Origin: Corallococcus exiguus
Lineage (GTDB): Bacteria; Myxococcota; Myxococcia; Myxococcales; Myxococcaceae
Direction of reading: 5' to 3'
NCBI RefSeq assembly: GCF_009909105.1
Contig: NZ_JAAAPK010000002.1
Span: 221,827-285,826, forward strand
DNA length: 64,000 bases
The notes beneath the pieces are model-generated. The model did no database searches, had not been told where the DNA came from, and worked only from the letters and a program-made list of their open reading frames with translations. Positions 13,181-30,016 of this stretch are shown in pieces (positions within the stretch are counted from its first letter, which is position 1; each line of letters starts with the position of its first letter). Both the position numbers and the translations under genes were made by a program.

Positions 13181-13563
13181 CTCGCGTCGCGACCCGGGGA
13201 AAGCACCCGCCTTGCGATGAGTCGCATGGCCTGGCTGTTTTCACGCATTTGAAGACATGCCCTGGAGGGCTCGGGCTGCCGGAGCACTCCCGCGCCAATG
13301 CCCTGCCGGACGCGCCCATGCTGGCCGAGGGCCGTTATCCCCGCTTCGCCACCGAGGGCGAGCTCACGGCGCACTGCTATGGGCAGGAGTCCGCCGCGGC
13401 CTGATGCTGGAATGGAGCGGGTTGTAGGTGCCTGGAAGCACATGGCCTCCTGTTCAATCCAGCTCCCTCCGTGGTATCCGCATACTTTTGCGCCCCGCGA
13501 GGCCGGGGGCTCGGTCTGCTCCCGAGACGTACGAGTGCTCCCACTGACACGAGGGGTCTTGTC

Positions 13564-14346: not shown

Positions 14347-16200
14347 TCAGCGTCTCAGGCTGTTGATCTGCTCCTCGATGAGGGCGCGGACCTTGGGATA
14401 CAGCTCTTGTCGGCTGACGGAATGTGAAACCCGCATGAAGTAGGACAAGCCTCCGTAAGAAACGGGAGGCGTGAACTCCAGCTTGTTCGAAGCAAGGGGG
14501 TACGGTTCAGCAGGCTTATAGGGAACGTGCATGCCGCTCGCTTTGGGGAGCGCCTGCATGGACGGAGAAACTCTCAGGGTGACCTCCAATTGCCCGACGC
14601 TCCGCTCCTTGAGGATGCCAACATGGGTCTCGAGCACCGCGCACAGCTCCGCGAGGGCCGCGACCGCTGGAATGCTGATCATTCCGCTGGCCTCGCGGAA
14701 GAGTCTTCCCGGATCGGTTGGAAGCGCCATCAGATTGGTCGGCAGGTACTTGTTTGCTTTCAGCCAGACCACCAGCCAGTCAAGTGTGCGCCGGATCGTG
14801 GTGACGGTTTTCCCCTGTTCGGCGATCAGCGTGCTCACAGGGGCATGATTCGCAAGAAGGGTGAAGACGAGGTTCATCAAATCGGTTCGAGCGGCGGTAC
14901 TGGCGTACCTGGCTTCACACTTTTCCAGCCGGCCAACGAAGTTGTCGAAGTTGGCATCCAGATGGAACTGCGCGTACGCGTCCTCCTTGGTGATGTCGAC
15001 GTCGACGATCCGGTTCGCGAAGGGCGATTGCGCGTACTGGGCCTTGGGGGATGAAGTCGTGTTGTCGAATTTGTGGATCTGTTGCTCAAGGACCTGGGCA
15101 AGCAGGTCCCATAATGGGCCGCTCAGGGTCTTCGGATTGATTTGAAGGAGTTTGGAGATGGCTCTCAGGGGGCTTGAGACATTCAAGTCGTCGAAAAAGC
15201 CCATGAGCGGGTAGCGTCCGCTGGCCTTTCGGGCTTGGAACGCCTTGAGCGCTGGCGACAGACTGGTCTCGACTTTGTTCAGCTCGGCCTGAAGCCGATT
15301 GGCGAGATCGTTGCTGATGATCTGTCGATTCTTTGGGGCATCGCCCGTCATCTCGACTGGCACGTCGAAGGTGATGACGTTGTTGAGCGCGCAGATGACC
15401 TCGCGGGCCTTGGCAAGGGCGGTCTTGACGCTGTTGAGGGTGTTGATGCAGCTGTCGTAGAGCGCCTTCCCCTTGGCCGGATCCATCAACAACTTCAAGT
15501 CAATCCATAGGGAAGGGTCGGCATCCTTGAGTCTCGTGGACTTGACGGCGTCCTCAAACACACGGGTGTCGAACTTTATCTTCTTGAGCTGGGCGCCGAA
15601 GTCGTCGAATTCGGACCGCTTGAAGGCATCGTGAAAAGGGAGGAGTGAGAAGTCGGCAACGACCCTCTGGGTCAGGTCGTATTTGTTGTAGACGTTGATG
15701 ATCTTGCACTCCTTGTGGAGTGCCTTGGTGTTGACGTGGTGTTGCTTCGTGAAGAACGGTGTCGAGAGATAGGTGATGCTGCGGATCTTCCAGCGCTGGG
15801 GCCATGCGACGGCTGCCTGGGCCGTCAGCTCGTTGATGACATTCCCGCCATGTGAATGGCCGATGAGATGGAATGCGACTTCCTGGTTGAGGAAGCCCTT
15901 GTAGTAGGCGCTTTGTCCGTTGGCGCCACAGAGGCGGTTGGCCAGGTAGGTCCCCGCGATCGTACGGTTGGAGGAACCATTGTCCCCCGTCCATCCGTGA
16001 GCCGTGAAGATGTGGACATGGGTGTAACGCTTGTGGATTTCGTCGATGGTCTGCCGCAGGGCGGGGTTTTCCTGCCAGTACCAGTCTGGGTCGTTGATGC
16101 TCTTCTTGCGCTGATAACTCGCGGAGCGCGCCTTCAAGTCGCTGTTGACCGGGTCTACTGTTCCGCTCACCAAGACGATGATGTTGGGAATGTCGGACAT
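14347..16200 (-). CDS. alpha/beta hydrolase-like protein (putative lipase/esterase; GHSHGG nucleophile elbow) with long C-terminal helical domain
   Basis: Start at MSDIPNIIVLVSG (ATG 16200, GAGGAAAG upstream). HLIGHSHGGNVINEL is a GxSxG motif in a hydrolase-like N-terminal about 250 aa. Local GC is clearly lower than flanking DNA. Confidence 0.6.
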   Translation of the reverse strand: MSDIPNIIVLVSGTVDPVNSDLKARSASYQRKKSINDPDWYWQENPALRQTIDEIHKRYTHVHIFTAHGWTGDNGSSNRTIAGTYLANRLCGANGQSAYYKGFLNQEVAFHLIGHSHGGNVINELTAQAAVAWPQRWKIRSITYLSTPFFTKQHHVNTKALHKECKIINVYNKYDLTQRVVADFSLLPFHDAFKRSEFDDFGAQLKKIKFDTRVFEDAVKSTRLKDADPSLWIDLKLLMDPAKGKALYDSCINTLNSVKTALAKAREVICALNNVITFDVPVEMTGDAPKNRQIISNDLANRLQAELNKVETSLSPALKAFQARKASGRYPLMGFFDDLNVSSPLRAISKLLQINPKTLSGPLWDLLAQVLEQQIHKFDNTTSSPKAQYAQSPFANRIVDVDITKEDAYAQFHLDANFDNFVGRLEKCEARYASTAARTDLMNLVFTLLANHAPVSTLIAEQGKTVTTIRRTLDWLVVWLKANKYLPTNLMALPTDPGRLFREASGMISIPAVAALAELCAVLETHVGILKERSVGQLEVTLRVSPSMQALPKASGMHVPYKPAEPYPLASNKLEFTPPVSYGGLSYFMRVSHSVSRQELYPKVRALIEEQINSLRR

Positions 16201-16247
16201 GGCTTTCCTCGTGTCGTGAACTGGGAACAACAGGGCCAGGTCCGCGC

Positions 16248-17231
16248 TCACCACTCGCCGCTGGCGCCACCTCCGCCGGAGCGACCGCCCATTCCCTTGA
16301 ACGCGGTCTCCGTCAGCGGCTGGCTCTTCAACGCGGGGTGGAGATCCAGCAGGTACTGGACCCACTTCTTCGCGTTGAGCTCCCGCGGCGTTTCGAATTC
16401 CGCCTTCCGGCGATACACGCCCCGCCATTCAGGTTGGGTTGACCACAGAGAGGCACCGTCATCCGTGCCGTAGGTCTTGGGGTGGCCTACGTTCAGACGG
16501 AAGCCCTTGGCGTGGACGTAGTTCGCGAGCAGGTTGCTCCAGAGGGAGATGATGGTCTCGCGGATGTCGACGAAGATCCCGGGATCCACCTCCATGAGCT
16601 TGAACAGGAGCAGCGAGGAGCGCTCGACCGCCGAGGACTCCAGGTAGAAGACGGGGGTGGGGCCGCCACTGTAGGGCGTGAACTTGCCGCTCTCGACCTT
16701 GCCGACCTGGAGACTTCCTGCGTTCCATCCGGGCATCCCCGGCTGCAAGAGGCCGAAGACCCAGGACCGGCGGCCCGCGAGGAAGTGATACGCATTGTAT
16801 TGAATCAAGACGGAGAGCGCCGAAAGCGGCAGGATCGACAGGGGCTTCTCCAGACCCTCGGAGAAGTTGCGCTTGAGCGTCTGCGCGGCGAACCCCTTGT
16901 TGGGATCCTGCCAGAGGACGTGGACCCAATCGCTGTGGAAGTCAGGCAGGTTGATGCCCAGCGCCGCGAGCTTGACGTCGAGCAGGAAGCGAAGCGTCCG
17001 GGTTTGCTCGAACTGCCGGGTCGACCAGGCGACGCTCGCCTGGTTCTCCTGCATGTTCTTACCGAGCCCATTGAAGAACTTGGGAAAGTCCTTGGTGAAC
17101 TCCGCCACGAGCACCGGGAGTTGCTTCTGCGGATCGCCCTGGAGCCCAGGAACGCTGAAGTGGATCCGGAATTGATTCACATGGAAGTTGCCACTGCCCC
17201 TGGCGATCTTGAGCTCCGTAAAGTCCATCAC
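16248..17231 (-). CDS. hypothetical protein (no signal peptide), middle gene of low-GC cassette
   Basis: 327-aa ORF, 4-nt ATGA overlap with upstream lipase gene. No recognisable motif; C-terminal Gly-rich tail. Confidence 0.5.
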   Translation of the reverse strand: MMDFTELKIARGSGNFHVNQFRIHFSVPGLQGDPQKQLPVLVAEFTKDFPKFFNGLGKNMQENQASVAWSTRQFEQTRTLRFLLDVKLAALGINLPDFHSDWVHVLWQDPNKGFAAQTLKRNFSEGLEKPLSILPLSALSVLIQYNAYHFLAGRRSWVFGLLQPGMPGWNAGSLQVGKVESGKFTPYSGGPTPVFYLESSAVERSSLLLFKLMEVDPGIFVDIRETIISLWSNLLANYVHAKGFRLNVGHPKTYGTDDGASLWSTQPEWRGVYRRKAEFETPRELNAKKWVQYLLDLHPALKSQPLTETAFKGMGGRSGGGGASGEW

Positions 17232-18997
17232 CTACCTCCTGGTGAAGAGCGCTGTGCCGAGCTTCTTCCCAGGCTCCCCTGGTTGATGAGAGGGAGCCTC
17301 GTCGCCACGTAGGTGTTGTCGCGGTCCATGGTCAGCCGATCCGGCTGAAGCATCTTCACGTCGAACTTCGGAGGAGGAAGATGCAGCGACTTGATGGCAA
17401 GGCCTTGCAGTCCCCCCACTTCATCGAGTGCGACCTTCAGCGTCACAAGCGGAGGAAGGAGTGTGCGAGCGAGTTTGGGCAGGGGAGAGTCGTAAGACAT
17501 AACCTCTTTCATGAAGGATTTGACCGGAGCCCCCATGATCGCGTCGATCTGCTTCATCACCGACCGGTAGAGTCTCGGGATATTGAGCACCCCCAGGCGC
17601 TTCTTGCGCATCTCCTCGACGATGGGGCTGTGGATGTTGTCGCTGGACTGGCCGGATGACTGGGGGCCTACCGTGAGCCGGGTGCGTTTGGTGGTCCCGT
17701 TGGGGCCCAGCAATCGCTGGCTGTGGAGAGCCCCAAGCGCCGCTCCCACGCTCTTGGCGGCCTGGGCGTTCCCTCCGGCATATGCGATTGCCACCGCGGC
17801 GAGCAGTTGCTTGATGTTGGAGGTCCTCATCACCGCTGGGAACAGCTCCTTCTTGACGACGATCATGAAGAGGATGCCCAGCACGTCGGTGAGGAGATCA
17901 TCCACCTTGTGCAGAGAGCCATTCTTGAGAAGCCTCCGCAGCTCCGCCGTGGCGGCTCCCTCCAGGATGGTGGCGTTGCCTGCAAGCAACGTCTCGCCTG
18001 CGAGTGAGACGACATCTCCCTGGGTGAGATAATGAGTCGCCAGCGGGCCCTTGGGGGCCTTGAGGCGGTTCGCGGTCTTTCTATCGACGCCGGGTGAGTT
18101 GAAGGTCACCACCTGGAGAACCGAGTCCCCGAAATCGACCGCCACCCGCTGCGCCATGGCGCCACCCAGGCTGTGTCCGACGACAACGACGTCCTTCCTG
18201 CCAATGCGCGTCAGCAGTGTCTGGAAGAGCGCGCGGGTCTGCTTGAAGGCAGTTGCGCCAACCCCCGCGGGGTCCATGTCCGCGACGGCATCAGGTGCCT
18301 TCTCGAACTCGGTGCCGCGGACCGCGATGATGGGATGGTTTCCACGGGATGGCTGCAGCCAGTAGGCGAACACGCCATGGGTCTTGTTATGGGGGTCGCT
18401 GCCCTCCATCTGGACAATGGTGTAGTACAGGGGCTGTATGCCCGGCTTCTTGGAGTAGGGGCGTTTGGTTGAGACGGCATAGGTCGCCGGGAACTTCAGC
18501 TCGGGCATTGCCCAGAGCTCCGGCGTTTCAGCGCGATACAGGAACCTGTCGACCTGGATGCCAGCCTGTGCGCCGCCGCCCTGGTTGTTCAGATAGGCGA
18601 AGTCGTGAGCCAGGTACTCGTAGAACTCGTGGTCGGGCGTGAAGTCCTCGGCCCATGGCTCGGGTGGCGCCTTGGGCATGACGATGGGCCGCGTGGCAAC
18701 CCGGGTGTTGTCCTGGAGGATGTGCTGGGTCTGGAGACGCAGTGCGTTCAGATCAATGTGAAGCGCATTGGAAGGCGACGCGTGTGTCTTTGCCGCTCCC
18801 GAGCCGGACGCCACCGCCAACACGTTGGACTCCGGGATGTAGACCTTGTCACCTGGTTTGATGTGGTCAGGATCGGGCCGTGTCTTCCGGAGCGCGGCGT
18901 TTCGTGGGTCTTTGTAGACGACGCGCCAGTCCGCGATCCGGTAGGACGCGGCGATGCTGTACAGCGACTCTCCGGCCTTGACGACATGCTGGGTCAT
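17228..18997 (-). CDS. LysM-domain protein fused to class-3 lipase-like alpha/beta hydrolase
   Basis: N-terminus VKAGESLYSIAASYRIADWRVVYKDPRNAAL...IKPGDKVYIP is a LysM fold signature. VVVGHSLGGAMAQRVAVDFG matches the Lipase_3 GHSLGG motif. Start overlaps stop of the giant upstream gene (ATGA). Confidence 0.65.
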   Translation of the reverse strand: MTQHVVKAGESLYSIAASYRIADWRVVYKDPRNAALRKTRPDPDHIKPGDKVYIPESNVLAVASGSGAAKTHASPSNALHIDLNALRLQTQHILQDNTRVATRPIVMPKAPPEPWAEDFTPDHEFYEYLAHDFAYLNNQGGGAQAGIQVDRFLYRAETPELWAMPELKFPATYAVSTKRPYSKKPGIQPLYYTIVQMEGSDPHNKTHGVFAYWLQPSRGNHPIIAVRGTEFEKAPDAVADMDPAGVGATAFKQTRALFQTLLTRIGRKDVVVVGHSLGGAMAQRVAVDFGDSVLQVVTFNSPGVDRKTANRLKAPKGPLATHYLTQGDVVSLAGETLLAGNATILEGAATAELRRLLKNGSLHKVDDLLTDVLGILFMIVVKKELFPAVMRTSNIKQLLAAVAIAYAGGNAQAAKSVGAALGALHSQRLLGPNGTTKRTRLTVGPQSSGQSSDNIHSPIVEEMRKKRLGVLNIPRLYRSVMKQIDAIMGAPVKSFMKEVMSYDSPLPKLARTLLPPLVTLKVALDEVGGLQGLAIKSLHLPPPKFDVKMLQPDRLTMDRDNTYVATRLPLINQGSLGRSSAQRSSPGGR

Positions 18998-21900
18998 GAC
19001 ACCCGCTCCTGCTGGGACTGAGCCCGCCGTCCCTGGCGCGCCAGCCCCAGGCCCAGCAGGAGCAACAGGGCCAGCGCCGCGCCCCCATCCCCGCTGGTTC
19101 CACAGGCGCAGCCGCCGCCCGTGCCTCCCAGGGTCCTGGCCTGTGCCTTCAGTGTGAGCGAGGCCTCCGTCGTCGTCTCTCCTCGCAGGCGCAGCTTCAG
19201 CGTTCCCTCCGCGGGGCCTCCCACCTCTCCGTGGAAGGTGACGCTCACCGTCGTCTGGGCTCCCGGCGCCAGCTCCGCGTCCAGGGCGCTCGCGTCGATC
19301 ACGAACGCCGGGTTGGTGTTCTCCACCACGCTCAACCTCGCCGGCGACGCGGACTGGTTCGTGAGCGTCACCGTGCGCGCCGTGCTGGTGGCGCCAATGT
19401 CCACCCAGCCCAGATCCAACTCCATGGGCTCGATGGTCAGGAAGCTGGCCACCGAGATGCCCGACAGGGCCACCAGCGCCGCGCGCTCCTGGTCCTTCGT
19501 GCCCAGCACCAGCGTCGCCTTCGACGCGCCAATCACTGACGTGTCGTACTTCAGATCCAGCGTCAGCGAGTCACCCTGCGGTAGCGCGCGGCCCTCCGCG
19601 CCCAGGACGGGAGACACCACCACGAAGTTCGTGGCCTGGGGTCCCTCCACCTTGGGAGGCATCACCACCAACTCCTGGGTGGTGTCATTGGTGAGCACCA
19701 CCTTCGTCGTCGCCGGCTCCGCCTGGCGCACGGTGCCGAAGTCCACCGTGCGATTGAGCGCCCGGAACACCGTGGAGAGCCCCCGGCCCGACAGCGACAC
19801 CTGCGCCTCCGGCGACTCCAGGTCGTTCGTCACCACCAGGAGGTTGGCCTTGGACGTGACGTCCGGACGGGGGACGTACTTGACGAAGACGTCCTTCGAT
19901 TCCTGGGCTGCCAGCGTGAAGGGGAGCGTGGGCGCCGAATCCAGGCTGAAGTGCGAGGGCTCGGAGTTCTCCGAAGCGGCGATGATCTCCAGCCCCCGCA
20001 CCACCAACGGCTGGAGGGACTCGTTGGTGAGCTTCACGAAGCGGATCGCCGAGGCGGAAGACTCGGCCACCCGGGCGCCAAACTCGAGCGTGGGAGTGGA
20101 CAGGCTGAGCTGGCTCGTCCGGCCCTGGCCCCCCAGCTTCACGAGCATGGTGCTCGCCTGGCTGTCTTCGGAGGTGATGCGCAGGTCCGCGTTGAAGCGC
20201 CGCTGGGCGTCAGGACGGAACTGGATCGACACATCCAGGCTTCCTCCCGGGGTCAGCGCCAGGGGCAGCGTTGGCTTCTGCAGGATGAACACTCTCGCAT
20301 CCTCCGCCTCCAGCGAGATCTCCTTCACGGTGAGCGTGTTGGCTTCCGAGCCGCTCCCGGCGTCCGGGGACCCAGCTGGCGCAACATGCGTCAGCCTCAG
20401 TCCAATGCCTTCCGAGGTCGCGTTCACCCGGGTTCCTCCAAAGTCCAGAGAACCGTCGAAGGTCTGGCCGTCACGGCGCGCCACCGCGAGCCTTGCCAGC
20501 GTGGCCGTTCCCTGAAGGGTGAGCTCCAGCGGAAGCTGGGAGGACGCCTCCACCCGCACCGTGGCCTTGGCCGTCCGGAGTCCGCCCGTCGACCCCTGCG
20601 GAGTGAAACGGAGTTTCACCGTGGCACTGCCATTCGCGGGCACCTTGGGCAGCGTCTCCTGCACGGAGAACTCCGAGTTCCCCGCGGGGATCGTCACGGA
20701 AATGTTCGCGTCGGTGATACCGGTGTTGTTCACCGTCACCGTCTTTTCCAGGGACGAGCCGAAGTTCACGCGCCCGAAGTCGATGGTAGAGGGCGACAGA
20801 CTCACGCCACCCACTCCATCCACGATCAGCTTCACGACGGTGGACGACGGATCCGCGTTGCTGGAGATGACCAGGTTGCGCTCGATCTTGAGGAGCTGGG
20901 TGGGCTTCGCGGTGACGTAGAAGGCATGCGCGGCGCCGGGCTCCACCGTGAAGGCGGGCACGACGGGACTCAGGGTGGAGGGGCAAACCGCGGTCTTCTG
21001 CGTGTCCACGCGCAGGCAGAATTGATCCGGAACGGACACGGAGTAGATCACCAGCGGGGCCTTGCCTTCGTTCTTCACCACCACCGGCTGGGGATCCCCT
21101 TCGACCGTGATGGCTTGAGGCGCGAATTCAGGTGTGCCACCGGGCAGTGCCAACACGGGGATGGTGCCCCGGCCCGAGACCGTGATGGTCTGGTCCGTGC
21201 TTTCGTTCGAATTGCTCAGCACGTGCACGGCGCCAGTCACTTCCAGCGCGGACTCGGGACGGAAGGTGACATCGAGCTGAAGGGGCACATTTCGCTCAAT
21301 GGTGACGGGGAACTGCTGGTTGTTCTGCAGCCTGGCTGTGAAGGGACCGCTCCCCGTCGCATTGGTGATGGTGAGGGGGGCGGAGCCGATGTTCGTCAAG
21401 GTGACGGTCTGGGTGCTGGAGGACAGCCGAGGGATGTCATTGAAGACAAGCTGATTCTTGTTCATCTGCAGTTGCGCGACCGCGGCGACGCCGGACAGCT
21501 TGACGATCAGCCTGGCCGTGGCCGGTGCCTTCGCGGCGAGCTCAAGGTCGCCGAAGTAGTTGCCCGGGCGCTGGGGGACGAACGTGATTTCGATCTTGCG
21601 AGTGCCATTCACCGGGATGGTGGAATTGGATCCACCAATCAGATCGATGTTGAAGGTTCCAACGCTGGTGGCCACCTCCGCCAGGTCAACCTCCACCAGC
21701 CCTGTGTTGATGATGTCCACGGGCAGCATGAGCGAGCCTCCTGGCTGCGTGGCGGGGAAGACCACGGCAGCCAATGACGTGGAGAACTTGGCCTCCGCGC
21801 CAGTCCCCTGCAGTGGGAAGCTGCGCTTCGTCTCGATATTGCTGAGAGTCCCCCGGTAGGTGATCTCCAGGCTGGCTTCGTACTCCTGGTCCTCGATGTT

Positions 21901-24843
21901 GGGACTGAAGGTCACCCGGAAGGGCTGGGGCCGCTTCGCACCCTTCTCGAGCACGGGCTCGGAGCTGGTGACGTTGTCCACGGAGAACGCCGTGCCGGAC
22001 GGTTCAATGTGGACATCGGTGACCTTCAGCGGCTCGGACGCGGAGATGCTGTTGCTCACGTTGAGGCTGAGGTTGACGTGGGTGCTCCGGTTCTGCTTGT
22101 GGCCGAAGTCGATCTCGCTCGCGGTGAAGATGGCGTTGGGGCCATTGGAGTTGCCCTTGACGACGAGCACGGGCGGAAGTTGCCGGTCATTCGTGGTGTA
22201 GAAACGCAGCCGCGCCTCCAGGTCGCCCGTGTTTGTCTTTGGACGGAAGAGCACCTTCACCTTGGTTTCCCCGCCCGGTTGCAGGGTCTGGGGCGGGAAG
22301 TCGACGACCTGGAACAAGGTGTTGTTGTCCTCCGGGACGACCTTCGAGAGGAACAGCGCCTGGTTGCCGCTATTGCGCAAGGTCGCTTCCTTCGTGGATT
22401 CACCTCCGGGGGCCACGTTGGGCATCACCAGCGGGTTTGTGACCAGGGTCAGCTCCGCGGCGAACGCCCGGCCGGTGATTGTCACGGGGGGCACGGCCTG
22501 CGAGGCATCCGTTTGGAGTTGGAGCGTCTTCGAATAGTTGCCCGAAGTGGTCGCGGCGAAGGTCACCGTCACCGGGGCGGTACCCCCGTTCTTCTGGACG
22601 GTCAGGCCTTCCGCCGGAATGCCAGAGATCGTGAAGGGGTCCAGGAGCCCGGATGCGACGGGGAACACCTTGATGGGCCAGTTGGTGCCGTTCGAGAGGA
22701 TCAGCTGCTGGGGCTGGGGCTGATCGCCGACGGTGTAATCAGGGAAGGTCAGCGTGCCCGTGCTGATTCCCAGGGAAGTCTTGCGCGCGGTGCCATGGAG
22801 GGGCACGTTGGACACGCAGGTCGTGGTGGGCGACGTACCGAAGGAGAGCACGCCATCCACTGCGCCGCTCTCATTGGCGCCGGGGTTGAAGGTCACGAAG
22901 AGCTCACGTGCCGCGGAGCCCGGTGCCAGGGTGAACGGCGTGGTGGGGCTCACGGAATAGGAACTGCCGCCCATCGTCACGGCGGGCGTCACCGTCAGCG
23001 CGACCGTCCCCGTGTTGGTCACCGTCACCTTCTTCTGCTCACTCCCCACGTCTCCTGCCTCCTGTTCGGCGAACTCGAACGAAAGGGGGACGATGCCCAG
23101 GCAGACATTGCCCGGCGTCTTGGCTCCGGACAGGGAGAGTTCGGGTGCGGCGGGGTCGTTGCTGGTGAAGGTGAGCTTGCCGGTCGTGGCGCTCGTCTGC
23201 GTCGGGCGGAACGTCAGCTGGAGGCGCTGGGTGTCTCCGGGCGCGAGGTTGAAGGGGCCCGAGGGATTCACCCGGAAGGGGGAGTCCTGTGGCAGCGTCA
23301 GTGCGGTCACCGTGAGCAGGCTGTCTCCGCCGTTCTTGACCGTGACCTCCTGGGGCGCGCTGTCGGTGTCGAAAGGCGTCTGCTCGAAGGCCAGCGTGGT
23401 GCGGCTCAAGACGAGCTTCGGGCTGGACGGAGTCGTGCCTGAGAGCGTTACGGATTGATCCGCGACATTGCTCTTGAAGACCAGGGTGTCGGATGGAGTC
23501 CCGGTCGGACGCGGTCGGAACGTCACTTTCAGGCGTTGGGTTCCTCCGGGGGCGATGCTGAAGGGGGCCGCGGTATCGACCCGGAAGAAGGAGTTCTGGG
23601 CCAACGCCAGTTGGGTCACGGTGAGCACACTGCCGCCTTCGTTCCGGACCGTGACTTCCTGGGGGGCACTGTCGGTGTCCAGGGGCGTCTGCGGGAAGAC
23701 CAACGCGGTGAGGCTCAGCACGAGCTTGGGCGGGATGACCGCGGGCGTGGCGCCAGACAGGGAGACGCCTGGCACGTCAGTGCCGTCGATGGTGAAGGCG
23801 AGGGTCTCGTTCCAGCTGCCCGTCACCGTTGGGCGGAACGTCAACTTCAGACGTTGGGTATCTCCCTTCGCGAGACTGAAGGGACCCACGGTGTCGACGC
23901 TGAACGGTGAGTTGGCGGGCAGCTTCAACTGGCTCACCGTGAGCAGGCCGTCGCCGTCGTTCCGAACGAGGACCTCCTGGATATCACTGGCGGTGTTCAC
24001 AGGCGTCTGCGCGAAGGCCACCGCGGTGCGGCTCAAAACGAGCTTCGCGGGGGACAGCCCCTCACCCGTGAGCAAGGCGTATGGCGGAGTGGGGCACACG
24101 GCGGACGCGGTCGTCAGGAAGAGCGCGCTCGAGCGGGGGCCCAGGTGGTCAACGGTCAGGGGGTTGAAGCTCACCTCGAGCGTCGTCGAGCTCGCGGGCG
24201 GGATGGTCACCGAGGTGTTGGACACACTGAAGGGGGCGGTGGCGGAAGGCTCCATCGTGAAGTTCACAGTGCCCAGGTTCATCACCGTGACGCTTCTCGA
24301 TGTCGAAGACCCCAATTCATGGGCGCCGAACGCCACGGACGTTTGTCCGAGGACGATCAGTGGGCCCGAGGCCTTTCCTTCAAGCTCCACGACAATCGTC
24401 GGGGCGGCTGGATCATTCGTGTGCAGCGTCAGCGTGCCGCGGAAGGTACCGGGCTGGAGCGGCGAGAATCCGAACCGCACGGTCATGGCTTCCGTGCTGC
24501 TCACGGGCGTGATCGGGACGGAGCAGTTGGTTTCACAGCGGTTGGCCGCCGTGTCGTACAGGCCGTTGAAGGTGAAGGCCCCGGTGACGCTCACCCGGTA
24601 GATCGTGAGCGCCGTGCTGCCGGTGTTGAACAGCTTGATGGAGTCCTGCTGCGGCGAACAGGAAGGCTGTTCGCCGAAGTCGATGGAGGTGTCCGACACG
24701 CTGAGCCCAGGCGTGCCAGTCGCGGGTAGCAACGCCTCGATGGGGGCCTGGGTGGTGCCGAGCTCCGGCGGTTTCTCCGATTCAGGACCGCAGGCAGTGA
24801 GGACGCACAGTGCAGCCGTCAGGATGAGCAGGATGCGTTGCAT
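18994..24843 (-). CDS. giant (1949 aa) cell-surface lipoprotein with tandem Ig-like/ASH (choice-of-anchor-D-type) repeats and C-terminal MYXO-CTERM sorting signal
   Basis: Lipoprotein signal MQRILLILTAALCVLTACG. At least 3 near-identical 100-aa repeats (LVLSRTAVAFAQTP...TFRPT) plus many degenerate beta-sandwich repeats. C-terminus GGGCACGTSGDGGAALALLLLLGLGLARQGRR is a Cys-rich motif plus TM plus Arg tail, typical of MYXO-CTERM. Starts 10 nt after the tssJ-like stop. Confidence 0.75.
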   Translation of the reverse strand: MQRILLILTAALCVLTACGPESEKPPELGTTQAPIEALLPATGTPGLSVSDTSIDFGEQPSCSPQQDSIKLFNTGSTALTIYRVSVTGAFTFNGLYDTAANRCETNCSVPITPVSSTEAMTVRFGFSPLQPGTFRGTLTLHTNDPAAPTIVVELEGKASGPLIVLGQTSVAFGAHELGSSTSRSVTVMNLGTVNFTMEPSATAPFSVSNTSVTIPPASSTTLEVSFNPLTVDHLGPRSSALFLTTASAVCPTPPYALLTGEGLSPAKLVLSRTAVAFAQTPVNTASDIQEVLVRNDGDGLLTVSQLKLPANSPFSVDTVGPFSLAKGDTQRLKLTFRPTVTGSWNETLAFTIDGTDVPGVSLSGATPAVIPPKLVLSLTALVFPQTPLDTDSAPQEVTVRNEGGSVLTVTQLALAQNSFFRVDTAAPFSIAPGGTQRLKVTFRPRPTGTPSDTLVFKSNVADQSVTLSGTTPSSPKLVLSRTTLAFEQTPFDTDSAPQEVTVKNGGDSLLTVTALTLPQDSPFRVNPSGPFNLAPGDTQRLQLTFRPTQTSATTGKLTFTSNDPAAPELSLSGAKTPGNVCLGIVPLSFEFAEQEAGDVGSEQKKVTVTNTGTVALTVTPAVTMGGSSYSVSPTTPFTLAPGSAARELFVTFNPGANESGAVDGVLSFGTSPTTTCVSNVPLHGTARKTSLGISTGTLTFPDYTVGDQPQPQQLILSNGTNWPIKVFPVASGLLDPFTISGIPAEGLTVQKNGGTAPVTVTFAATTSGNYSKTLQLQTDASQAVPPVTITGRAFAAELTLVTNPLVMPNVAPGGESTKEATLRNSGNQALFLSKVVPEDNNTLFQVVDFPPQTLQPGGETKVKVLFRPKTNTGDLEARLRFYTTNDRQLPPVLVVKGNSNGPNAIFTASEIDFGHKQNRSTHVNLSLNVSNSISASEPLKVTDVHIEPSGTAFSVDNVTSSEPVLEKGAKRPQPFRVTFSPNIEDQEYEASLEITYRGTLSNIETKRSFPLQGTGAEAKFSTSLAAVVFPATQPGGSLMLPVDIINTGLVEVDLAEVATSVGTFNIDLIGGSNSTIPVNGTRKIEITFVPQRPGNYFGDLELAAKAPATARLIVKLSGVAAVAQLQMNKNQLVFNDIPRLSSSTQTVTLTNIGSAPLTITNATGSGPFTARLQNNQQFPVTIERNVPLQLDVTFRPESALEVTGAVHVLSNSNESTDQTITVSGRGTIPVLALPGGTPEFAPQAITVEGDPQPVVVKNEGKAPLVIYSVSVPDQFCLRVDTQKTAVCPSTLSPVVPAFTVEPGAAHAFYVTAKPTQLLKIERNLVISSNADPSSTVVKLIVDGVGGVSLSPSTIDFGRVNFGSSLEKTVTVNNTGITDANISVTIPAGNSEFSVQETLPKVPANGSATVKLRFTPQGSTGGLRTAKATVRVEASSQLPLELTLQGTATLARLAVARRDGQTFDGSLDFGGTRVNATSEGIGLRLTHVAPAGSPDAGSGSEANTLTVKEISLEAEDARVFILQKPTLPLALTPGGSLDVSIQFRPDAQRRFNADLRITSEDSQASTMLVKLGGQGRTSQLSLSTPTLEFGARVAESSASAIRFVKLTNESLQPLVVRGLEIIAASENSEPSHFSLDSAPTLPFTLAAQESKDVFVKYVPRPDVTSKANLLVVTNDLESPEAQVSLSGRGLSTVFRALNRTVDFGTVRQAEPATTKVVLTNDTTQELVVMPPKVEGPQATNFVVVSPVLGAEGRALPQGDSLTLDLKYDTSVIGASKATLVLGTKDQERAALVALSGISVASFLTIEPMELDLGWVDIGATSTARTVTLTNQSASPARLSVVENTNPAFVIDASALDAELAPGAQTTVSVTFHGEVGGPAEGTLKLRLRGETTTEASLTLKAQARTLGGTGGGCACGTSGDGGAALALLLLLGLGLARQGRRAQSQQERVS
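23150..24045 (-). repeat. three tandem ~300-bp intragenic repeats (protein-domain repeats) within the giant surface-protein gene
   Basis: Both DNA and protein level: LVLSRTAVAFAQTPVNTASDIQEVLVRNDGDG..., LVLSLTALVFPQTPLDTDSAPQEVTVRNEGGS..., LVLSRTTLAFEQTPFDTDSAPQEVTVKNGGDS.... Coordinates approximate. Confidence 0.6.
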
Positions 24844-24852
24844 GAGGCGACC

Positions 24853-25365
24853 TCAGTTCTCGGCGTGGAGGGCCGGGGCCTTGGCGGTGGAGGAGGGTGG
24901 GGGCTTCGGGGCGGCGGGCGGTTCGGGCGGCTTCGCCGCGTCGTCGCCTTCCTTGGGGGCCGCAGGCTGGGTGCCCGTGCGGATGCGGCCTTCCAGCAGT
25001 TCGATTTCCAGGGAGCCGGGCGCGGGCGTGTTCACGAACTGCTGCCAGGTCCCGTCCGGGGCGGTGAAGAGGAACGACACCGCCACCGGCGTGTTGTCCG
25101 GCAGCGGCACCTTCATGCGCTGCAACCTGCCCGGATAGATGACCTCCGAGAGCAGCACGTCCGCGTCCGGCTGGAAGATGCGCGCGGACACCTCACCGTA
25201 GGACTCCACGGCGAACTGCTTCGGATCGACCTTGCGCACCAGCATGTACATCGGCCGGCCCTGGTTCGTCCCTGAGGGGGCCTTCACGCTCAGGTGCAGC
25301 GTGCTCGGCTGACACGCGGCCAGGAAACACAACGCCAGGGGGATGCAGCCTGCCCACGGTTTCAT
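24853..25365 (-). CDS. tssJ: TssJ-like type VI secretion outer-membrane lipoprotein
   Basis: 170 aa, lipoprotein signal (LALCFLAAC). Size and position immediately downstream of tssM with 4-nt overlap. Beta-rich body followed by a Pro/Ala-rich tail. Assigned by context and size more than motif. Confidence 0.5.
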   Translation of the reverse strand: MKPWAGCIPLALCFLAACQPSTLHLSVKAPSGTNQGRPMYMLVRKVDPKQFAVESYGEVSARIFQPDADVLLSEVIYPGRLQRMKVPLPDNTPVAVSFLFTAPDGTWQQFVNTPAPGSLEIELLEGRIRTGTQPAAPKEGDDAAKPPEPPAAPKPPPSSTAKAPALHAEN

Positions 25366-28300
25366 CGCGGCACCTCGCGGAACGGGATCCAGGGCTCACC
25401 CTTGAGCCCGACGCGCAGCTCCATCACCCCGTCCGGGGGCGTGGCGGCTCGCGCTCTCAACGACCACTTGCGGTGCTGCGGGTCTTCCGTGGCCTGGGAT
25501 GACTCCAGCAGCCGGAAGCAGCTCCACGCCGAACGCGACTTCTCCAGCGACGCGTACTGCACCGCCTGCTCCGTGGGCGCACGCAACTCCAGCATCAGCG
25601 ACGCCGTCTGCTGGTCCCACCACGCCAGCGGGAACTCCTGCCACGACGGACTCTGGTTGTACGCGAGGAACGTCGTCTTGCCGCACTTGAGCGAACCCAG
25701 CGTCACGAAGCTGCCCGGTACGGGCGCCTTCGGCAGCGGCAGCGGCATCACCTGCAACATCAGCGGCCGGGGCCTGCCCTCCGCGTCCCACAGCACGCGG
25801 GCCAGCCGCGACAGCTTCCCCAAGGAGGGCAACATCCCCTGCGGGAACGCCAGCCGCGACTGGAGCGCGCTTCGCGGTACCCACTCCGAGCCTCGCTCCT
25901 CGCACACCGGTGTCAGCACCCGAGTCACGAAGTCCCAGAAGGCTCCGTCGAGCCGGCGCAGCACCTCCAGGTCTTCCTGCGCCACCTCCTGCGACGCGTC
26001 CGGCGTGAACGGATAGTGCTTCAGCAGCGGACGCAGGAACCGGCCCGAGGCCTCGTCCCACTGCCGCTCCAGGGTTCGTTCAATCTCCCGCTGGCCCAGC
26101 TCGCGCACCGCGAGGAACGGCTGGCGGAAGGGCTGCCGCAGCTCTCCGATGAGCCCCTGCTGGTCCAGCCACGCGTCCACCTTGCGCAGGTAGGACGTGT
26201 CGTCCTCCATCATCATCGCGAAGGCCAGCCTCCCCAGCGGCGTGAGCAGCTCCTGGAGCTTCGCGGCCCCGCCGGCCGGCTGAGCGCTGCCAGTGGCCAG
26301 GCCTCCCGTGAGCGACGCTGTCGCCTCCGCGGGCACCATGCCCGGACGGGGCACCGCGTTCAGCTCGTCCGACATCTGGGCCACCAGCGCCCGGTAGGGG
26401 TTGAGCGCCGTGTAGTTGCCCGTCTCGTCCGGCTTCATCACCGTGGCGATGGGCTTGAAGGGCGCCACCGCGTTGCGCAGGGATTCGTAGAAGGGCCCCT
26501 CCAACGGCTCCAGCGCCACGCTCTGGGCGACGTCGCGCAGCATGTCCACCAGGTCCGAGGACGGCTGCGTGAGACGCGACAGCTCCTCCGCCAGGAGCGC
26601 GGGAATCACCGCCTGGAAGCGGTAGCCGCCCACGCGCTGGAACAGGCGGTTGCGGTACTGGACCGCGAACTGGTTCACCTTGCGGCGCACGTGCTCGTGG
26701 CGCTGCAACACCTCCTCCACCGGCAGCCCCGAACCCTTGATGCGCGTGGTGAACTCATCCACCAGCGGGCGCAACCGCGTGTCGAATTCCAGCCGGTCCG
26801 ATGCCAGGCTCGCGCCGCTCCGCGCCGCCACCGCCTCCTCGCCCTCCACCACGCCAAAGGGCATGCGCCCCGTCTTCTCGTGGTAGCGCAAGAGCGCCTG
26901 GTGCAGGAGCCGCGAGCTGTCCTTGGGCCGGAACTCGAAGGTGCTCTGGAGCACCGGGACCTGGAGCACCGAGGGGCCGTTGCCCGGCAGCCACAGGCCG
27001 TCGCGCACCAGCAGCTCCGCCACGTTCATCTTCTGAACCGCCTTCACGCCCAGGAAGGCCTCTTCCTCCATGCGCAGCACGTTCGTCAGCACTTCGCGGT
27101 GGTCGTTGATCCACGCCACCGTCCTGATGGTGGAGGGGATGCCCCGGAAGCGGCTGGTGTCCACTCGCGCCTCGGAGGCGGCCAGGAGCTCCAGCGCGCG
27201 CGGCAGACTGCTAAAGCGCGCGCTGTCATCCAGCAGCGTCTGGAGCCTCCGTCGCTCGTCCTGCATGGACTCCAGCTCCGCGTCCAGCTGCTCCAGCGCG
27301 CGCGGCTCCACGGCCCGGTTCGCCAGCAGGTCCTGCAACCGCCGCAGGTGCGCCTGCCACGGCATCAACTGGGACTCCTGCGTGAGCGGCTCCGGGTAGG
27401 GCCAGCGCGCCCAGCTGGCTTCGGGCGTGTCCGGCGCGGACCACGGCGGATTGCTCATGACGACGTAGTCGGCCACCAGGGAGTCGTTCAGCCCCACCGC
27501 CGTCACCCACGAGCGCCCTCCCTCCAACGCCGCCGCGTCCGCGGCAGGCTCCGCCGAGCCGTCCTCCGACACGAAGCCCCAGTTCGGACGCGTCTTCAGG
27601 CTGGACAGCACCAGTTGGCCCAGCGGCTCCTCGCGCGAACCGTGCAACGCGGCCAGCAGGTAGACGACCTGCTCCGGACGGCACGTGTCCGGCTGGCGGT
27701 GGCACTTCTCCAGGGCGGGCCGGATGTGGGCCTCGCGGATGCCTCGCGCCAGGCGTTGGCGCAGGTCCTCTCGCGCGTCGGTGAAGCTGTAGCGCAACAG
27801 CGGCCACGTGTTCATGGCCCGCCACAACGAGTCCAGAGAGTGGCCCGCGGCGACCACCGGTTCCTGCACCGCGGCCCCGGACACCTCCTGCCCCTGGTCG
27901 CGGATGCGCTGGACCATCTCCTCGAAGCGCTGCACGCGTGTGCGCGCCTGGCCCAGCCTCCACGCGAAGTGCCCGTACACGGCCAGGAGCGGCAGCGCGC
28001 ACGCCAGCCCCAGCAGCACCGCCCGGCGCAGGTGGATGTGCAGGTAGCGCTCGTGGACCGCTTTCGCCGTGCTGGCCTCGGCGGACACCGAGAGGACGTC
28101 AGGGTCCCTCGTGTCCTTGTCCGCGGACGACAGCGACACCGTGGCGAGCCGGGGCGCATACGCCAGCGTCTGGCCCTCCATCAGCGCCGTCACGAAGCGC
28201 GACAGCGCCTCGAAAGGGGCGTGGCCCTCCGAATAGAAGTGCTCCAGCCGTTCGAAGGACTCCACCGGAAGCGACGTGAGACCCAGCGCCAGGTAGTGCT

Positions 28301-29063
28301 CCTGCGCCTTGAGCAGCGAGCCCACCTGTCCCTCCTGGCCCGACGGGGGCAGGGGGAAGCGCAGCGGCACGTGGTAGGCGCGCAAGAGCTTCGCGAAGTC
28401 CGCGTAGCCCTCCCGCTCATCCAGGTGGGTGAGGCACAGGCGCGTCTCCAGCTCGCCCCCGCGCACCTCCGACAACAGGTTGAGCCTGCCTCGCAACAGC
28501 TGCGCCGCGCGGCGCACCTCGTCCGGGGGCGTGTCCTGCAGCCAGCGCGCGTCCAGCACCAGCACCGCCAGCGCCTGCTGGCCGCTGCCGAAGCTGTCCT
28601 TCCACAGCCGGCGCAGCGCCTCTCGCGCCTGGGGCGACTCGTCCTCCACGAGCTGCGCGGACAGCTCCTGGGCCACCACGTCCGCGCCCAGGTAGATCTG
28701 GAGCAGCGAGTCCGTGAGGAGGCTGGGCAGGAACTGCCGCGCCTGCCGCTTCCAGTCCAGGTCCAGCTCGATGAGCCGCGACTTGCCCGCGCCCGCAGGG
28801 CCCAGCACCACCACACCTGGCAGGTCCCGTACCGCCACGCGGTGGCGCAGCGGCAGCCCGGCCAGGAACTTCTCGCGCACCTTGCGCAGCCGGTTCTTCG
28901 CCAGGGGCTCCGGCGCGGCGGCCCCTCCGGCCGGCGTGCTCTTGCGCTTCGCGCGCCACACGAGGAACAGCGGCACGAAGAGGGCCAGCAGCGCCAGGAG
29001 GATCAGCGCGTACGGCTTCCACTTCGGCGGAATGAACGCCGTCAGCTTCTTGAGGACATCCAT
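25362..29063 (-). CDS. tssM: type VI secretion membrane-complex protein TssM (IcmF-like)
   Basis: 1233 aa. N-terminal TM helices, then Walker A VVVLGPAGAGKSRL and IcmF-like architecture, a long periplasmic C-terminal domain. Upstream tssL-tssK synteny. Confidence 0.85.
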   Translation of the reverse strand: MDVLKKLTAFIPPKWKPYALILLALLALFVPLFLVWRAKRKSTPAGGAAAPEPLAKNRLRKVREKFLAGLPLRHRVAVRDLPGVVVLGPAGAGKSRLIELDLDWKRQARQFLPSLLTDSLLQIYLGADVVAQELSAQLVEDESPQAREALRRLWKDSFGSGQQALAVLVLDARWLQDTPPDEVRRAAQLLRGRLNLLSEVRGGELETRLCLTHLDEREGYADFAKLLRAYHVPLRFPLPPSGQEGQVGSLLKAQEHYLALGLTSLPVESFERLEHFYSEGHAPFEALSRFVTALMEGQTLAYAPRLATVSLSSADKDTRDPDVLSVSAEASTAKAVHERYLHIHLRRAVLLGLACALPLLAVYGHFAWRLGQARTRVQRFEEMVQRIRDQGQEVSGAAVQEPVVAAGHSLDSLWRAMNTWPLLRYSFTDAREDLRQRLARGIREAHIRPALEKCHRQPDTCRPEQVVYLLAALHGSREEPLGQLVLSSLKTRPNWGFVSEDGSAEPAADAAALEGGRSWVTAVGLNDSLVADYVVMSNPPWSAPDTPEASWARWPYPEPLTQESQLMPWQAHLRRLQDLLANRAVEPRALEQLDAELESMQDERRRLQTLLDDSARFSSLPRALELLAASEARVDTSRFRGIPSTIRTVAWINDHREVLTNVLRMEEEAFLGVKAVQKMNVAELLVRDGLWLPGNGPSVLQVPVLQSTFEFRPKDSSRLLHQALLRYHEKTGRMPFGVVEGEEAVAARSGASLASDRLEFDTRLRPLVDEFTTRIKGSGLPVEEVLQRHEHVRRKVNQFAVQYRNRLFQRVGGYRFQAVIPALLAEELSRLTQPSSDLVDMLRDVAQSVALEPLEGPFYESLRNAVAPFKPIATVMKPDETGNYTALNPYRALVAQMSDELNAVPRPGMVPAEATASLTGGLATGSAQPAGGAAKLQELLTPLGRLAFAMMMEDDTSYLRKVDAWLDQQGLIGELRQPFRQPFLAVRELGQREIERTLERQWDEASGRFLRPLLKHYPFTPDASQEVAQEDLEVLRRLDGAFWDFVTRVLTPVCEERGSEWVPRSALQSRLAFPQGMLPSLGKLSRLARVLWDAEGRPRPLMLQVMPLPLPKAPVPGSFVTLGSLKCGKTTFLAYNQSPSWQEFPLAWWDQQTASLMLELRAPTEQAVQYASLEKSRSAWSCFRLLESSQATEDPQHRKWSLRARAATPPDGVMELRVGLKGEPWIPFREVPR

Positions 29064-29066
29064 GGT

Positions 29067-29405
29067 TCAGCGCTCCCCCCAGCCCAGGACGCGCCCAGCC
29101 CGGCCCGAGCGATGCAGGGCCTCCAGGACGTCCTCCAACGTGTCCACCATGCCCGCGAACGACGCGCGCGCCTTCTCCTGCTCCTCCGGTGACAACCGCG
29201 CGTCACCCGGCCCCGGCATCAGGCGCGCCAGCGTCTGGCCCAGCTCGTCCAGCATGGGTTCCAGGCCAAAGGTCCCGACCCCCAGGCGCGCGGCGATGAG
29301 CCGCCGCACCTCCTGGAGCAGGGCGGGCGCGGCGTCGATGGGGGGCGCGGGCGGAGCCTGGGGGGCCGCTTGTGGCTTCACCGGGTCACCCACCAGAGCA
29401 GGCAC
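29067..29405 (-). CDS. small hypothetical protein between tssL and tssM (112 aa; start uncertain)
   Basis: ORF overlaps tssL 3' end by about 28 nt and ends 4 nt before the tssM start. Ala/Pro-rich N-terminus. Could be a real accessory gene or a frame artefact. Confidence 0.3.
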   Translation of the reverse strand: MPALVGDPVKPQAAPQAPPAPPIDAAPALLQEVRRLIAARLGVGTFGLEPMLDELGQTLARLMPGPGDARLSPEEQEKARASFAGMVDTLEDVLEALHRSGRAGRVLGWGER

Positions 29406-30016
29406 TGCAGCCCCAGCACGCTCGCGGCGCTGATGGCGTAGTAGCGGGCGGGAAAGGCGTAGAGCAACGGCCCAAGGGACTCGCCGGACGCGGCGGAGGC
29501 GGGCGCTGGCGGGGGCGTGACGATGCGCGCGGACAGCCGCTCCTGGTACTCACGCAGCTTCGCCGTATGGCCCAGGTAGCGGCCTCCGAAGCCCGCCGTG
29601 ATGCAGAAGTGGAGCATCTCGAAGAGCAGCGCGGGCGAGCCCGGCTGATCCAGGCGCTGATCCGCCAGCGTGTAGAAGGCCTCACCGCCGCCGTCCTCGC
29701 CGAAGAGGCGGTACTGCAACAGCGGCCACAGCGGCTGCTCCGAGTCCGCGAGCCGCAGGAGGACGCGCTCGTCCACCAGGTACGTGAAGGGCCTCAGCGC
29801 GTCCTGCACCTCCTCGTCGCGGGCGTGGGCGCCCAGGCCCGCGCGCAGCCGCTCAATCACCTCCAAGAGCTCGTCGTGGAGCCTGCGCAGGCCCTCGCGG
29901 CCCAAGAGCCCCGCCGCCGCGGCCGACCCGGGCGCGGCCTGCGGCAGCCACCCGTCCAATACGGACTGGGCCTGCCGGTACTGCGTGAAGACGACCTGCC
30001 AGTGCTCGAGCTTCAT
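29378..30016 (-). CDS. tssL: type VI secretion membrane-complex protein TssL (DotU-like)
   Basis: Start at internal Met MKLEHWQVVFTQYRQAQSVLDGW (ATG 30016; ORF table begins at 30364 in low-complexity sequence). DotU-family N-terminal domain features (FYTLADQRLDQ...FCITAGFGGRY) and C-terminal TM segment (ISAASVLGLQCLLWWV). Confidence 0.7.
   Translation of the reverse strand: MKLEHWQVVFTQYRQAQSVLDGWLPQAAPGSAAAAGLLGREGLRRLHDELLEVIERLRAGLGAHARDEEVQDALRPFTYLVDERVLLRLADSEQPLWPLLQYRLFGEDGGGEAFYTLADQRLDQPGSPALLFEMLHFCITAGFGGRYLGHTAKLREYQERLSARIVTPPPAPASAASGESLGPLLYAFPARYYAISAASVLGLQCLLWWVTR

Follow-up and report, generated by a model that had tools for sequence, protein, structure and literature searches.

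The window analyzed here, 64,000 nt from Corallococcus exiguus (contig NZ_JAAAPK010000002.1 of assembly GCF_009909105.1), carries on its minus strand a gene for a 1949-aa lipoprotein, hereafter the giant, embedded in a cluster for a type VI secretion system (T6SS). The giant joins a lipoprotein signal, 17 tandem immunoglobulin (Ig)-like domains and a C-terminal sorting signal, it keeps its place in related T6SS clusters of several myxobacterial genera, and its central domains are hypervariable among close relatives. We consider a dedicated genetic linkage of the giant to this T6SS lineage highly probable. Our favored reading, to which we give about an even chance, is that the giant is an accessory protein dedicated to a Francisella-island-like T6SS lineage and serves as a surface contact or recognition fiber; its surface localization, its role in adhesion or recognition and its coupling to firing are what we infer from sequence. 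The gene and its terminal signals are positioned in the window as follows.

18994..24843, minus strand: giant lipoprotein gene (ATG start, 1949 aa), from the open reading frame (ORF) and its translation, Pfam and NCBIfam matches and our own domain hidden Markov model (HMM)

24790..24843, minus strand: lipoprotein signal peptide with lipobox LTAC (Cys18), seen in the sequence and conserved in relatives

19144..20109, minus strand: conserved C-terminal Ig-like domains 15 to 17 (aa 1579-1900), from identity, dN/dS (ratio of nonsynonymous to synonymous divergence) and AlphaFold2 (AF2)

19024..19119, minus strand: MYXO-CTERM sorting signal (Cys motif, transmembrane [TM] helix and Arg-rich tail; aa 1909-1940), from TIGR03901 and an AF2 helix at the TM segment

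An initial annotation had described this gene as coding for a lipoprotein with a lipobox, tandem Ig-like/ASH repeats and a Cys-rich/TM/Arg sorting tail, and all of these features were recovered. The ORF call and the translation gave the same 1949-aa frame, whose GC content at the three codon positions (0.60/0.51/0.86) is as for genuine genes of the genome, and the ORF is thus a real gene. The N terminus, MQRILLILTAALCVLTAC followed by GPE, has the makeup of a lipoprotein signal: the n-region is positive, the h-region is hydrophobic, and the lipobox, L-T-A-C with Cys18, satisfies the pattern [LVI][ASTVI][GAS]C; the residue at +2 is Gly. At the other end, TIGR03901 (MYXO-CTERM) matched aa 1909-1940 of 1949 with 21.5 bits (cutoff, 20), and the tripartite motif is visible as GGTGGGCACGTSG, then AALALLLLLGLGLA, then RQGRR. 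The lipobox is kept in 17 of 18 Corallococcus orthologues, and the MYXO-CTERM motif is present in all 18 and in other genera.

Between these signals, the giant scored well above the cutoffs of four related families, namely, NF012200 choice_anch_D from NCBIfam (409.3 bits versus 45, over 15 stretches), PF22544 HYDIN_VesB_CFA65-like_Ig from Pfam (321.9 versus 25.5), PF22073 Cep192_D4 (276 versus 35.5) and PF15780 ASH (210 versus 27). The giant is a genuine member both of the MYXO-CTERM class and of the choice-of-anchor-D/ASH repeat family. Our own HMM, iterated on the giant and its orthologues, resolved 17 contiguous Ig-like domains of ∼100 aa each over aa 47-1900, with linkers of ∼6 residues and no other domain type in that interval. 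Tandem Repeats Finder detected no DNA-level tandem repeat in the gene and most domain pairs are 19 to 33% identical, showing that these are old protein repeats and not a low-complexity artifact. Domains 3 to 5 (aa 268-573; window 23100-24060, minus strand) are 58% identical to each other, compared to 19 to 33% elsewhere, which by sequence comparison is a recent internal triplication, younger than the other repeats. Since the number of domains ranges from 14 to 27 in orthologues, the array grows and shrinks.

We modeled aa 1575-1949 by AF2 with the orthologue alignment as input. The model contains three confident beta-sandwiches (mean pLDDT, 82; all-beta); the Gly/Cys linker that follows is disordered, and the TM segment is helical. 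Foldseek searches of the PDB with domains 15 to 17 of this model returned as best matches (E ∼3e-21) the ASH arrays of proteins from the ciliary central apparatus and, lower, a bacterial RTX-adhesin repeat, the SPD-2 domains of Cep192, an S-layer protein and protocadherins. In a PDB sequence search with the giant, HYDIN was the sole match.

We then looked at the junctions of the giant with its neighbors, which are both encoded on the same strand.

24853..25365, minus strand: IglE-type TssJ lipoprotein (PF22361 IglE_N, 106.8 bits), adjoining the giant upstream

17228..18997, minus strand: 589-aa protein with LysM-like and class-3-lipase/alpha-beta-hydrolase regions and a GHSLGG motif; the orthologue in a Corallococcus sp. 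locus (L033, see below) carries PF26363 Phospholipase-like

The initial annotation placed the giant directly after a tssJ-like gene with a gap of 10 nt. The position stands, with a gap of 9 nt (GGTCGCCTC) and a GAGG motif 5' of the ATG, and so does the TssJ role, although the lipoprotein is more exactly of the Francisella IglE type. A PDB sequence search with the IglE protein gave nothing meaningful, and exact-sequence look-up returned no record for it or for P0026. The overlap of the giant with the next gene was also found as described: 4 nt at the giant's stop, in an ATGA (GTGTCATGACC). The 9-nt gap and the ATGA overlap suggest that the IglE gene, the giant and the downstream gene are cotranscribed. 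A promoter and terminator scan of 13-32.5 kb found no motif above shuffled expectation, a result that speaks neither for nor against a promoter inside the operon. The minus-strand operon reads TssK, VgrG, DotU, a 112-aa protein, TssM, IglE and the giant, followed by cargo of low GC content, and its further recognized genes are these.

25362..29063, minus strand: TssM/IcmF-like membrane-complex subunit (IcmF_helical and IcmF_C; C-terminal match to TIGR03348; homologues named TssM/ImpL)

29378..30016, minus strand: DotU/TssL-like protein of 212 aa (PF09850, 60 bits); a DotU of 212 to 213 aa lies at the same place in loci L030, L031 and L033

30028..30606, minus strand: Francisella-type VgrG-like spike of 192 aa (weak NF041249 and DUF2345 matches; position conserved in all loci)

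30634..31887, minus strand: TssK, the first recognized gene of the operon (TIGR03353, 318.7 bits versus a cutoff of 100)

By its content, the system is not a canonical T6SS. The cluster (window 14347-44474, both strands) holds an IglI-family protein (NF041244 IglI_fam, 230 bits versus a cutoff of 100), gp25/TssE, DotU and a DUF4280 PAAR-like homologue, and the best PDB match of its TssC is Francisella IglB (3J9O_B, 423 bits), with canonical VipB/TssC at 336 to 361 bits (VipB, 361). Because of the IglE_N domain, the IglI family, the short VgrG, the DUF4280 PAAR-like protein, DotU, gp25/TssE and a sheath closest to IglB, we assign the cluster, from gene content and sheath match, to a noncanonical T6SS like that of the Francisella pathogenicity island. 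This class, T6SS-ii, has been described as restricted to Francisella (PMC5924787, PMC13584744). Our literature searches on T6SS-ii in myxobacteria and on MYXO-CTERM proteins linked to T6SS found no paper that makes this link or describes these clusters.

The relationship between the giant and the T6SS was evaluated by comparing loci across myxobacteria. The sample consists of 29 genome loci anchored on TssM and several more reached by exact-protein look-up. The TssM homologues, the closest of which is 95% identical (Corallococcus aberystwythensis), were sorted by identity to that of the window into clade A (54 to 95%), clade B (∼50%) and clade C (∼42 to 46%). A metagenome scan anchored on IglE added 12 loci, with no informative junction for clade A (two close loci end early). 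In clade A, the giant lies directly after IglE in all nine loci with readable sequence, with gaps of 9 to 110 nt. These comprise the window and the eight loci below, and they span at least six named genera (Corallococcus three times, Vitiosangium, Pyxidicoccus, Archangium, Cystobacter and Myxococcus) plus a metagenome-assembled genome (MAG) of the Myxococcaceae.

L002, Corallococcus coralloides: giant of 1848 aa

L033, Corallococcus sp.: giant of 2289 aa

L004, Myxococcaceae MAG: giant of 1883 aa

L006, Vitiosangium: giant of 1633 aa

L021, Pyxidicoccus fallax: giant of >1721 aa

L030, Archangium lansingense: giant of about 1640 aa

L031, Cystobacter ferrugineus: giant of 2522 aa

L032, Myxococcus fulvus: giant of 1888 aa

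All clade A giants have a lipobox, as read for instance in L004, L006, L021, L030, L031 and L032, and 14 to 21 Ig-like domains, and the MYXO-CTERM signal is present wherever the end is readable. In L021 and L032, the cluster is colinear, compared to the divergent order of the window, and the giant still follows IglE. In L032 (positions 19500-19895), the giant ORF continues for ∼110 codons after a TM/RRRR segment that resembles a MYXO-CTERM, so that it overlaps the gene that follows; the stop codon may have been lost, or the assembly may be wrong at this point.

What follows the giant is less constant. In the window, the lipase-like gene is succeeded by the remainder of a cargo island of low GC content (0.59 to 0.62; 14347-18997, minus strand), which contains in all two GxSxG hydrolases and a 327-aa protein.

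14347..17231, minus strand: variable low-GC cargo (GC, 0.59 to 0.62), a 327-aa protein and a second GxSxG hydrolase (693-aa ORF); differs between L002, L004 and L033

The 693-aa ORF has its probable start at Met77. After the giant, L002 carries only the 693-aa hydrolase, L004 only the 327-aa protein, and L033 the lipase and a 328-aa protein. Since the cargo differs among close relatives and the giant stays, we count the giant among the conserved genes of the cluster and not with the variable island. From sequence, the 589-aa lipase-like protein is a candidate T6SS phospholipase effector, and the genes of the island are probably exchangeable phospholipase effector modules.

The adjacency to putative lipase effectors raises the question of whether the giant itself could be delivered by the T6SS, as an effector or an effector carrier. 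We rejected this explanation, which we regard as very nearly negligible: the giant has a Sec/lipoprotein signal peptide and a membrane-anchoring C terminus, only Ig-like domains over its 1949 aa, and no delivery or toxin domain. Indeed, Pfam and NCBIfam searches found on the giant no Tss family, PAAR, VgrG, Hcp, MIX, FIX, toxin or enzymatic domain.

The comparison of loci also bears on the other possibility raised by the initial annotation, that the giant is an operon passenger, i.e., a generic myxobacterial surface protein without a role in the T6SS. Choice-of-anchor-D proteins are indeed widespread in unrelated phyla, as seen among the lower matches of our protein search, the giant borders a variable low-GC island, and the T6SS of clade C lacks it. 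Nevertheless, the position of the giant is kept in the 9/9 clade A loci and in 4/4 clade B loci across Myxococcota families, through rearrangements of the cluster. All close relatives examined are T6SS linked, no relative with readable context has the gene away from a T6SS, and the downstream cargo changes where the giant does not. We therefore consider the passenger explanation quite improbable.

In clade B, nothing follows IglE, and the giant instead heads the cluster in 4/4 loci (L034, L035, L038 and L051). The first 10-kb maps had led us to score the giant as absent from clade B, which was overturned when its best matches were found at the other end of the cluster. These best non-Corallococcus matches among 5.8 billion proteins are P0130, P0132 and P0135, all three T6SS linked, and a Stigmatella clade B locus reached via the AMP-binding-like gene has the same order as theirs. 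The clade B order is a divergent gene for a TraB-like OmpA protein, then the giant, an AMP-binding-like gene, DUF4280, two small genes, TssB and TssC. The clade B giants have 1959 to 3151 aa and are separated by 4 to 5 nt from the AMP-binding-like gene, and the lipobox and the MYXO-CTERM signal were seen in the three that were translated (L034, L035 and L038). At the level of single domains, orthology between clade A and clade B giants is not established. In the window, the counterparts of the genes that flank the clade B giants are located together, away from the giant.

41369..43437, minus strand: AMP-binding-like 560-aa protein and DUF4280 PAAR-like protein, a module found directly after the giant in sister-clade clusters

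43434..44474, minus strand: TraB-like secreted protein of 346 aa with a signal peptide and without an OmpA domain, homologous to the OmpA proteins flanking sister-clade giants

The AMP-binding-like (acyl-adenylate-forming-like) gene (41755-43437, minus strand) is conserved in all three T6SS clades, always beside the DUF4280 gene; the AMP-binding profile covers only ∼80 residues of the 560-aa protein.

Clade C has no such giant at either end of the cluster; this holds for L036 and L037, and in ∼13 loci IglE is followed by nothing. Several Corallococcus genomes carry two loci of the family (e.g., L003 with L018 and L005 with L019), and the second T6SS of these genomes (e.g., L018 and L019) falls in clade C. 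When we ran the domain HMM over every ORF of loci L001 to L050, multidomain giants were found only after IglE or at the cluster head. Two clade C loci of Myxococcus, L015 (18883-23720) and L024, have no Ig-array giant and carry after IglE a TraB-like OmpA protein and then another large adhesin-like protein with AgmC_N and Ca_tandemer repeats (at least 982 aa). From this arrangement, one and the same slot in T6SS loci may be taken by different surface proteins.

The positions in the three clades are also informative about a structural explanation, in which the giant would be part of the membrane complex, a periplasmic or outer-membrane scaffold that complements IglE as a spacer, for peptidoglycan passage or as an assembly platform. 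In the membrane-complex operon of the window, the gene of the giant is next in line after tssM and iglE, the giant has an N-terminal lipobox like TssJ/IglE, and its conserved C-terminal module is coinherited with core genes. However, the gene is at the opposite end of the cluster in clade B and absent in clade C, MYXO-CTERM predicts surface export, 17 extended Ig domains would be far longer than the width of the periplasm, and hypervariability together with a domain number of 14 to 27 is unlike a fitted core subunit. We think that a scaffold role is unlikely.

We then analyzed how the sequence of the giant has evolved, with substitution rates given as Nei-Gojobori estimates. The giant is the fastest-diverging among the conserved genes of the cluster, as seen when its identity to the window is set against that of TssM: 74% versus 91% in L002, 57% versus 82% in L004 and 29 to 31% versus 66 to 68% in L006 and L021. 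The divergence is unevenly distributed. The C-terminal 375 aa are 76 to 98% identical in 12/12 Corallococcus orthologues aligned, compared to 51 to 86% for the whole proteins. Domains 15 to 17 have 80 to 93% identity in L002, L004 and L033, and domains 1 to 14 are only 29 to 60% identical in L004 and L033, the two most divergent of the close orthologues compared. The variable part was delimited as follows.

20800..24320 (boundaries approximate), minus strand: hypervariable central cassette, ∼aa 175-1350, domains 2 to 12/13, from blastn against L033, per-domain identity and synonymous divergence (dS)

In blastn, the window and L033 are 91% identical over a stretch that begins at TssK and takes in the first ∼520 nt of the giant (to 24320), 66 to 70% identical or unalignable from there to ∼20800, and then 80% and finally 89% identical through the downstream lipase. 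The central domains have dS of 0.46 to 1.18 and dN/dS of 0.41 to 0.78, with dN/dS reaching ∼1.1 in three domains against L004. TssM, TssK, IglE and giant domains 16 and 17 have dS of 0.13 to 0.34 and dN/dS of 0.12 to 0.27, and dN/dS is 0.16 to 0.35 for domains 15 to 17. Since dS is higher in the center than in the flanks, the cassette has a longer history than the sequence on either side of it, which points to allelic replacement by recombination and not only to faster point substitution. Within the species, four alleles annotated as C. exiguus are 61 to 83% identical in the middle and 89 to 99% identical at the C terminus, with incongruent rankings.

Such a polymorphic, recombining cassette on a conserved anchor fits with a self/non-self receptor, in which the giant and the TraB-like protein would act like TraA/TraB and homotypic recognition of alleles, in place of generic adhesion, would gate the T6SS, with kin being spared or non-kin being aimed at. 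Intraspecific allelic diversity fits with this explanation, as do the MYXO-CTERM signal, as in TraA (PMC11980579), the presence of a TraB-like gene within the clusters and the second, giant-less T6SS of the same family in Corallococcus genomes, which suggests a specialized role. The 346-aa protein of the window is 50 to 55% identical to the N-terminal part of the ∼490-aa OmpA proteins of L034, L035 and L038. Its sole family match is NF033763 exchanger_TraB, with 23 bits; the OmpA homologues score 80 to 100 bits with this family, which is their best in L034, L035 and L038 (87 to 100 bits) and the second best in L015. The NF033763 cutoff of 700 bits is reached by neither, and by these matches the 346-aa protein and its OmpA homologues are TraB-like and not TraB. 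The low TraB scores (23 to 100 bits versus 700) count against a receptor, as does the giant itself, which has no PA14-like or TraA-type variable domain (no such match at E ≤ 0.01 in Pfam and NCBIfam, and none to the TraA family) and varies over ∼12 domains instead of a single recognition domain; homotypic binding is purely presumed. We regard a kin-gating receptor as possible, though doubtful.

Signals of the Sec/signal peptidase II type yield N-terminally acylated proteins. We propose that the giant is exported by Sec, lipidated at Cys18 and processed by a myxosortase at its MYXO-CTERM tail. In MYXO-CTERM proteins, the TM helix holds the protein in the inner membrane, lipidation presumably occurs at the invariant Cys, MrtX cleaves, and the type II secretion system brings the protein to the surface; this pathway is known for TraA and MXAN_4924 (PMC11980579). 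The lipoprotein signal and the MYXO-CTERM pathway are the reasons why we picture the giant as 17 Ig-like domains in a rod or arch that is anchored at the surface, possibly by both ends, and is ∼60 to 75 nm long if extended. Domains 15 to 17 and the anchor would form the cell-proximal base, which is kept matched to the T6SS locus, and the hypervariable central domains, swapped between strains by recombination, would be the exposed part that touches neighbors. The giant may thus make or sense cell-cell contact, such that a target is held in range and/or the identity of a neighbor is recognized, with the TraB-like outer-membrane protein of the same clusters as a probable helper. Cell-cell contact for contact-dependent delivery had already been suggested by the initial annotation; it is the best-supported function, as something we infer from the architecture, the polymorphism, the TraB-like neighbor and the analogy with TasL, a lipoprotein of Vibrio.

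Several observations weigh against a contact or recognition fiber. Arrays of ASH-type Ig domains are generic scaffolds, and their fold does not by itself imply adhesion. The MYXO-CTERM score barely exceeds its cutoff (by 1.5 bits), and an N-terminal lipid anchor together with a C-terminal MYXO-CTERM signal is a combination of which the reviewed MYXO-CTERM model makes no mention (PMC11980579), leaving the topology ambiguous. Relaxed constraint may explain some of the divergence seen in the central domains, and dN/dS is mostly <1. Homology between the clade A and clade B giants rests on 25 to 30% similarity at the level of repeats. Finally, the T6SS can evidently work without the giant, since clade C lacks it.

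The initial annotation also stated that T6SS operons do not normally include giant adhesin-like proteins, for which TasL of Vibrio fischeri T6SS2 is a counterexample: both cell-cell contact and target specificity depend on this >380-kDa lipoprotein, which is encoded with T6SS2 (PMC9040878). It is the only large surface lipoprotein among the "target recognition" accessory factors of a 2026 review, which has no myxobacterial entries (PMC13584744). Like the giant, which matched no TasL family in Pfam or NCBIfam, TasL is a very large predicted outer-membrane lipoprotein inside a T6SS cluster, with beta-sandwich domains of adhesin type and a reach predicted at tens of nanometers, a likeness of architecture and not of compared sequences; contact and target specificity were shown for TasL and are only proposed for the giant. 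TasL differs in having no C-terminal sorting signal, in belonging to a canonical T6SS-i of Vibrio, in a region that is fibronectin-III-like where the giant has an ASH/choice-of-anchor-D array, and in that no polymorphic cassette has been described for it.

A second likeness is with TraA/TraB of Myxococcus xanthus (PMC11980579, PMC3325183). TraA is also a MYXO-CTERM surface protein that is polymorphic within the species, and it is encoded with the OmpA-type TraB, as the giant's clusters hold a TraB-like partner. TraA/TraB governs contact between myxobacterial cells, a role that is only proposed for the giant. In contrast to TraA, the giant has no PA14-like domain or Cys-rich stalk, has an N-terminal lipobox and is much larger, and it is linked to a T6SS where TraA/TraB is linked to membrane fusion. 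By analogy, we see TasL as a functional precedent and TraA/TraB as an architectural precedent for the giant.

Other known systems share single traits. Choice-of-anchor-D/ASH proteins of the HYDIN, VesB and Cep192 types belong to the same domain family as the giant, as its HMM scores, above cutoff, and its predicted fold confirm. This family is a generic building block used in many phyla and contexts; what sets the giant's subgroup apart is its linkage to a T6SS, its dual anchors and its mosaic polymorphism. Receptor fibers of contractile injection systems (phage tail fibers and the Afp13-type fibers of extracellular contractile injection systems [eCIS]) combine, like the giant, a conserved proximal part, a recombining variable distal part and a contractile weapon, and their distal part sets the target, which for the giant is only proposed. 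Unlike these fibers, the giant is not on a baseplate, is Sec exported with a predicted anchor in the producer's outer membrane, and has no fiber-type fold. TslA and TagM1 (PMC13584744) are likewise T6SS-encoded envelope lipoproteins, and coupling of assembly to cell-cell contact is a feature of theirs; they are small periplasmic T6SS-i proteins with neither a surface-sorting signal nor Ig arrays. Compared to known large contact lipoproteins, the giant would be new in its MYXO-CTERM anchor, its swappable Ig-array mosaic, its TraB-like partner and its Francisella-like T6SS of Myxococcota.

Other features of the region were recorded. A few kilobases from the T6SS, the window holds a separate cluster resembling a contractile injection system or phage tail (49693-60633, plus strand), with a Phage_sheath_1 sheath, a gp19-type tube, CIS_tube, a GPD hub and a 1416-aa Baseplate_J protein. 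The orthologous T6SS of L030 likewise has a neighbor of this kind, an eCIS_core protein. A pentapeptide-repeat protein is encoded between carB and the cargo island (13471-14337, plus strand) and is found at the same place in C. coralloides (L002; 83% identity). PADLOC defense models had no match for the giant, the downstream cargo or the AMP-binding-like and TraB-like genes.

A family of Francisella-island-like T6SS in Myxococcota, with three clades, contrasts with the reviews that confine this class to Francisella. Little is settled on the way in which cells armed with a T6SS locate, hold or select a target, and the giant is a genetically tractable candidate in social, predatory bacteria; with its conserved base and its swappable variable array, tests by allele swapping are straightforward. 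A more far-reaching idea, which we put forward tentatively and do not expect to hold in full, is that a Francisella-type T6SS is wired to a TraAB-like module for allele-specific recognition, made up of the giant and the TraB-like protein. If this were true, the T6SS would have its own polymorphic receptor to choose the neighbor, a built-in device for targeting or kin discrimination, and its variable cassette would be exchanged between strains like a specificity locus.

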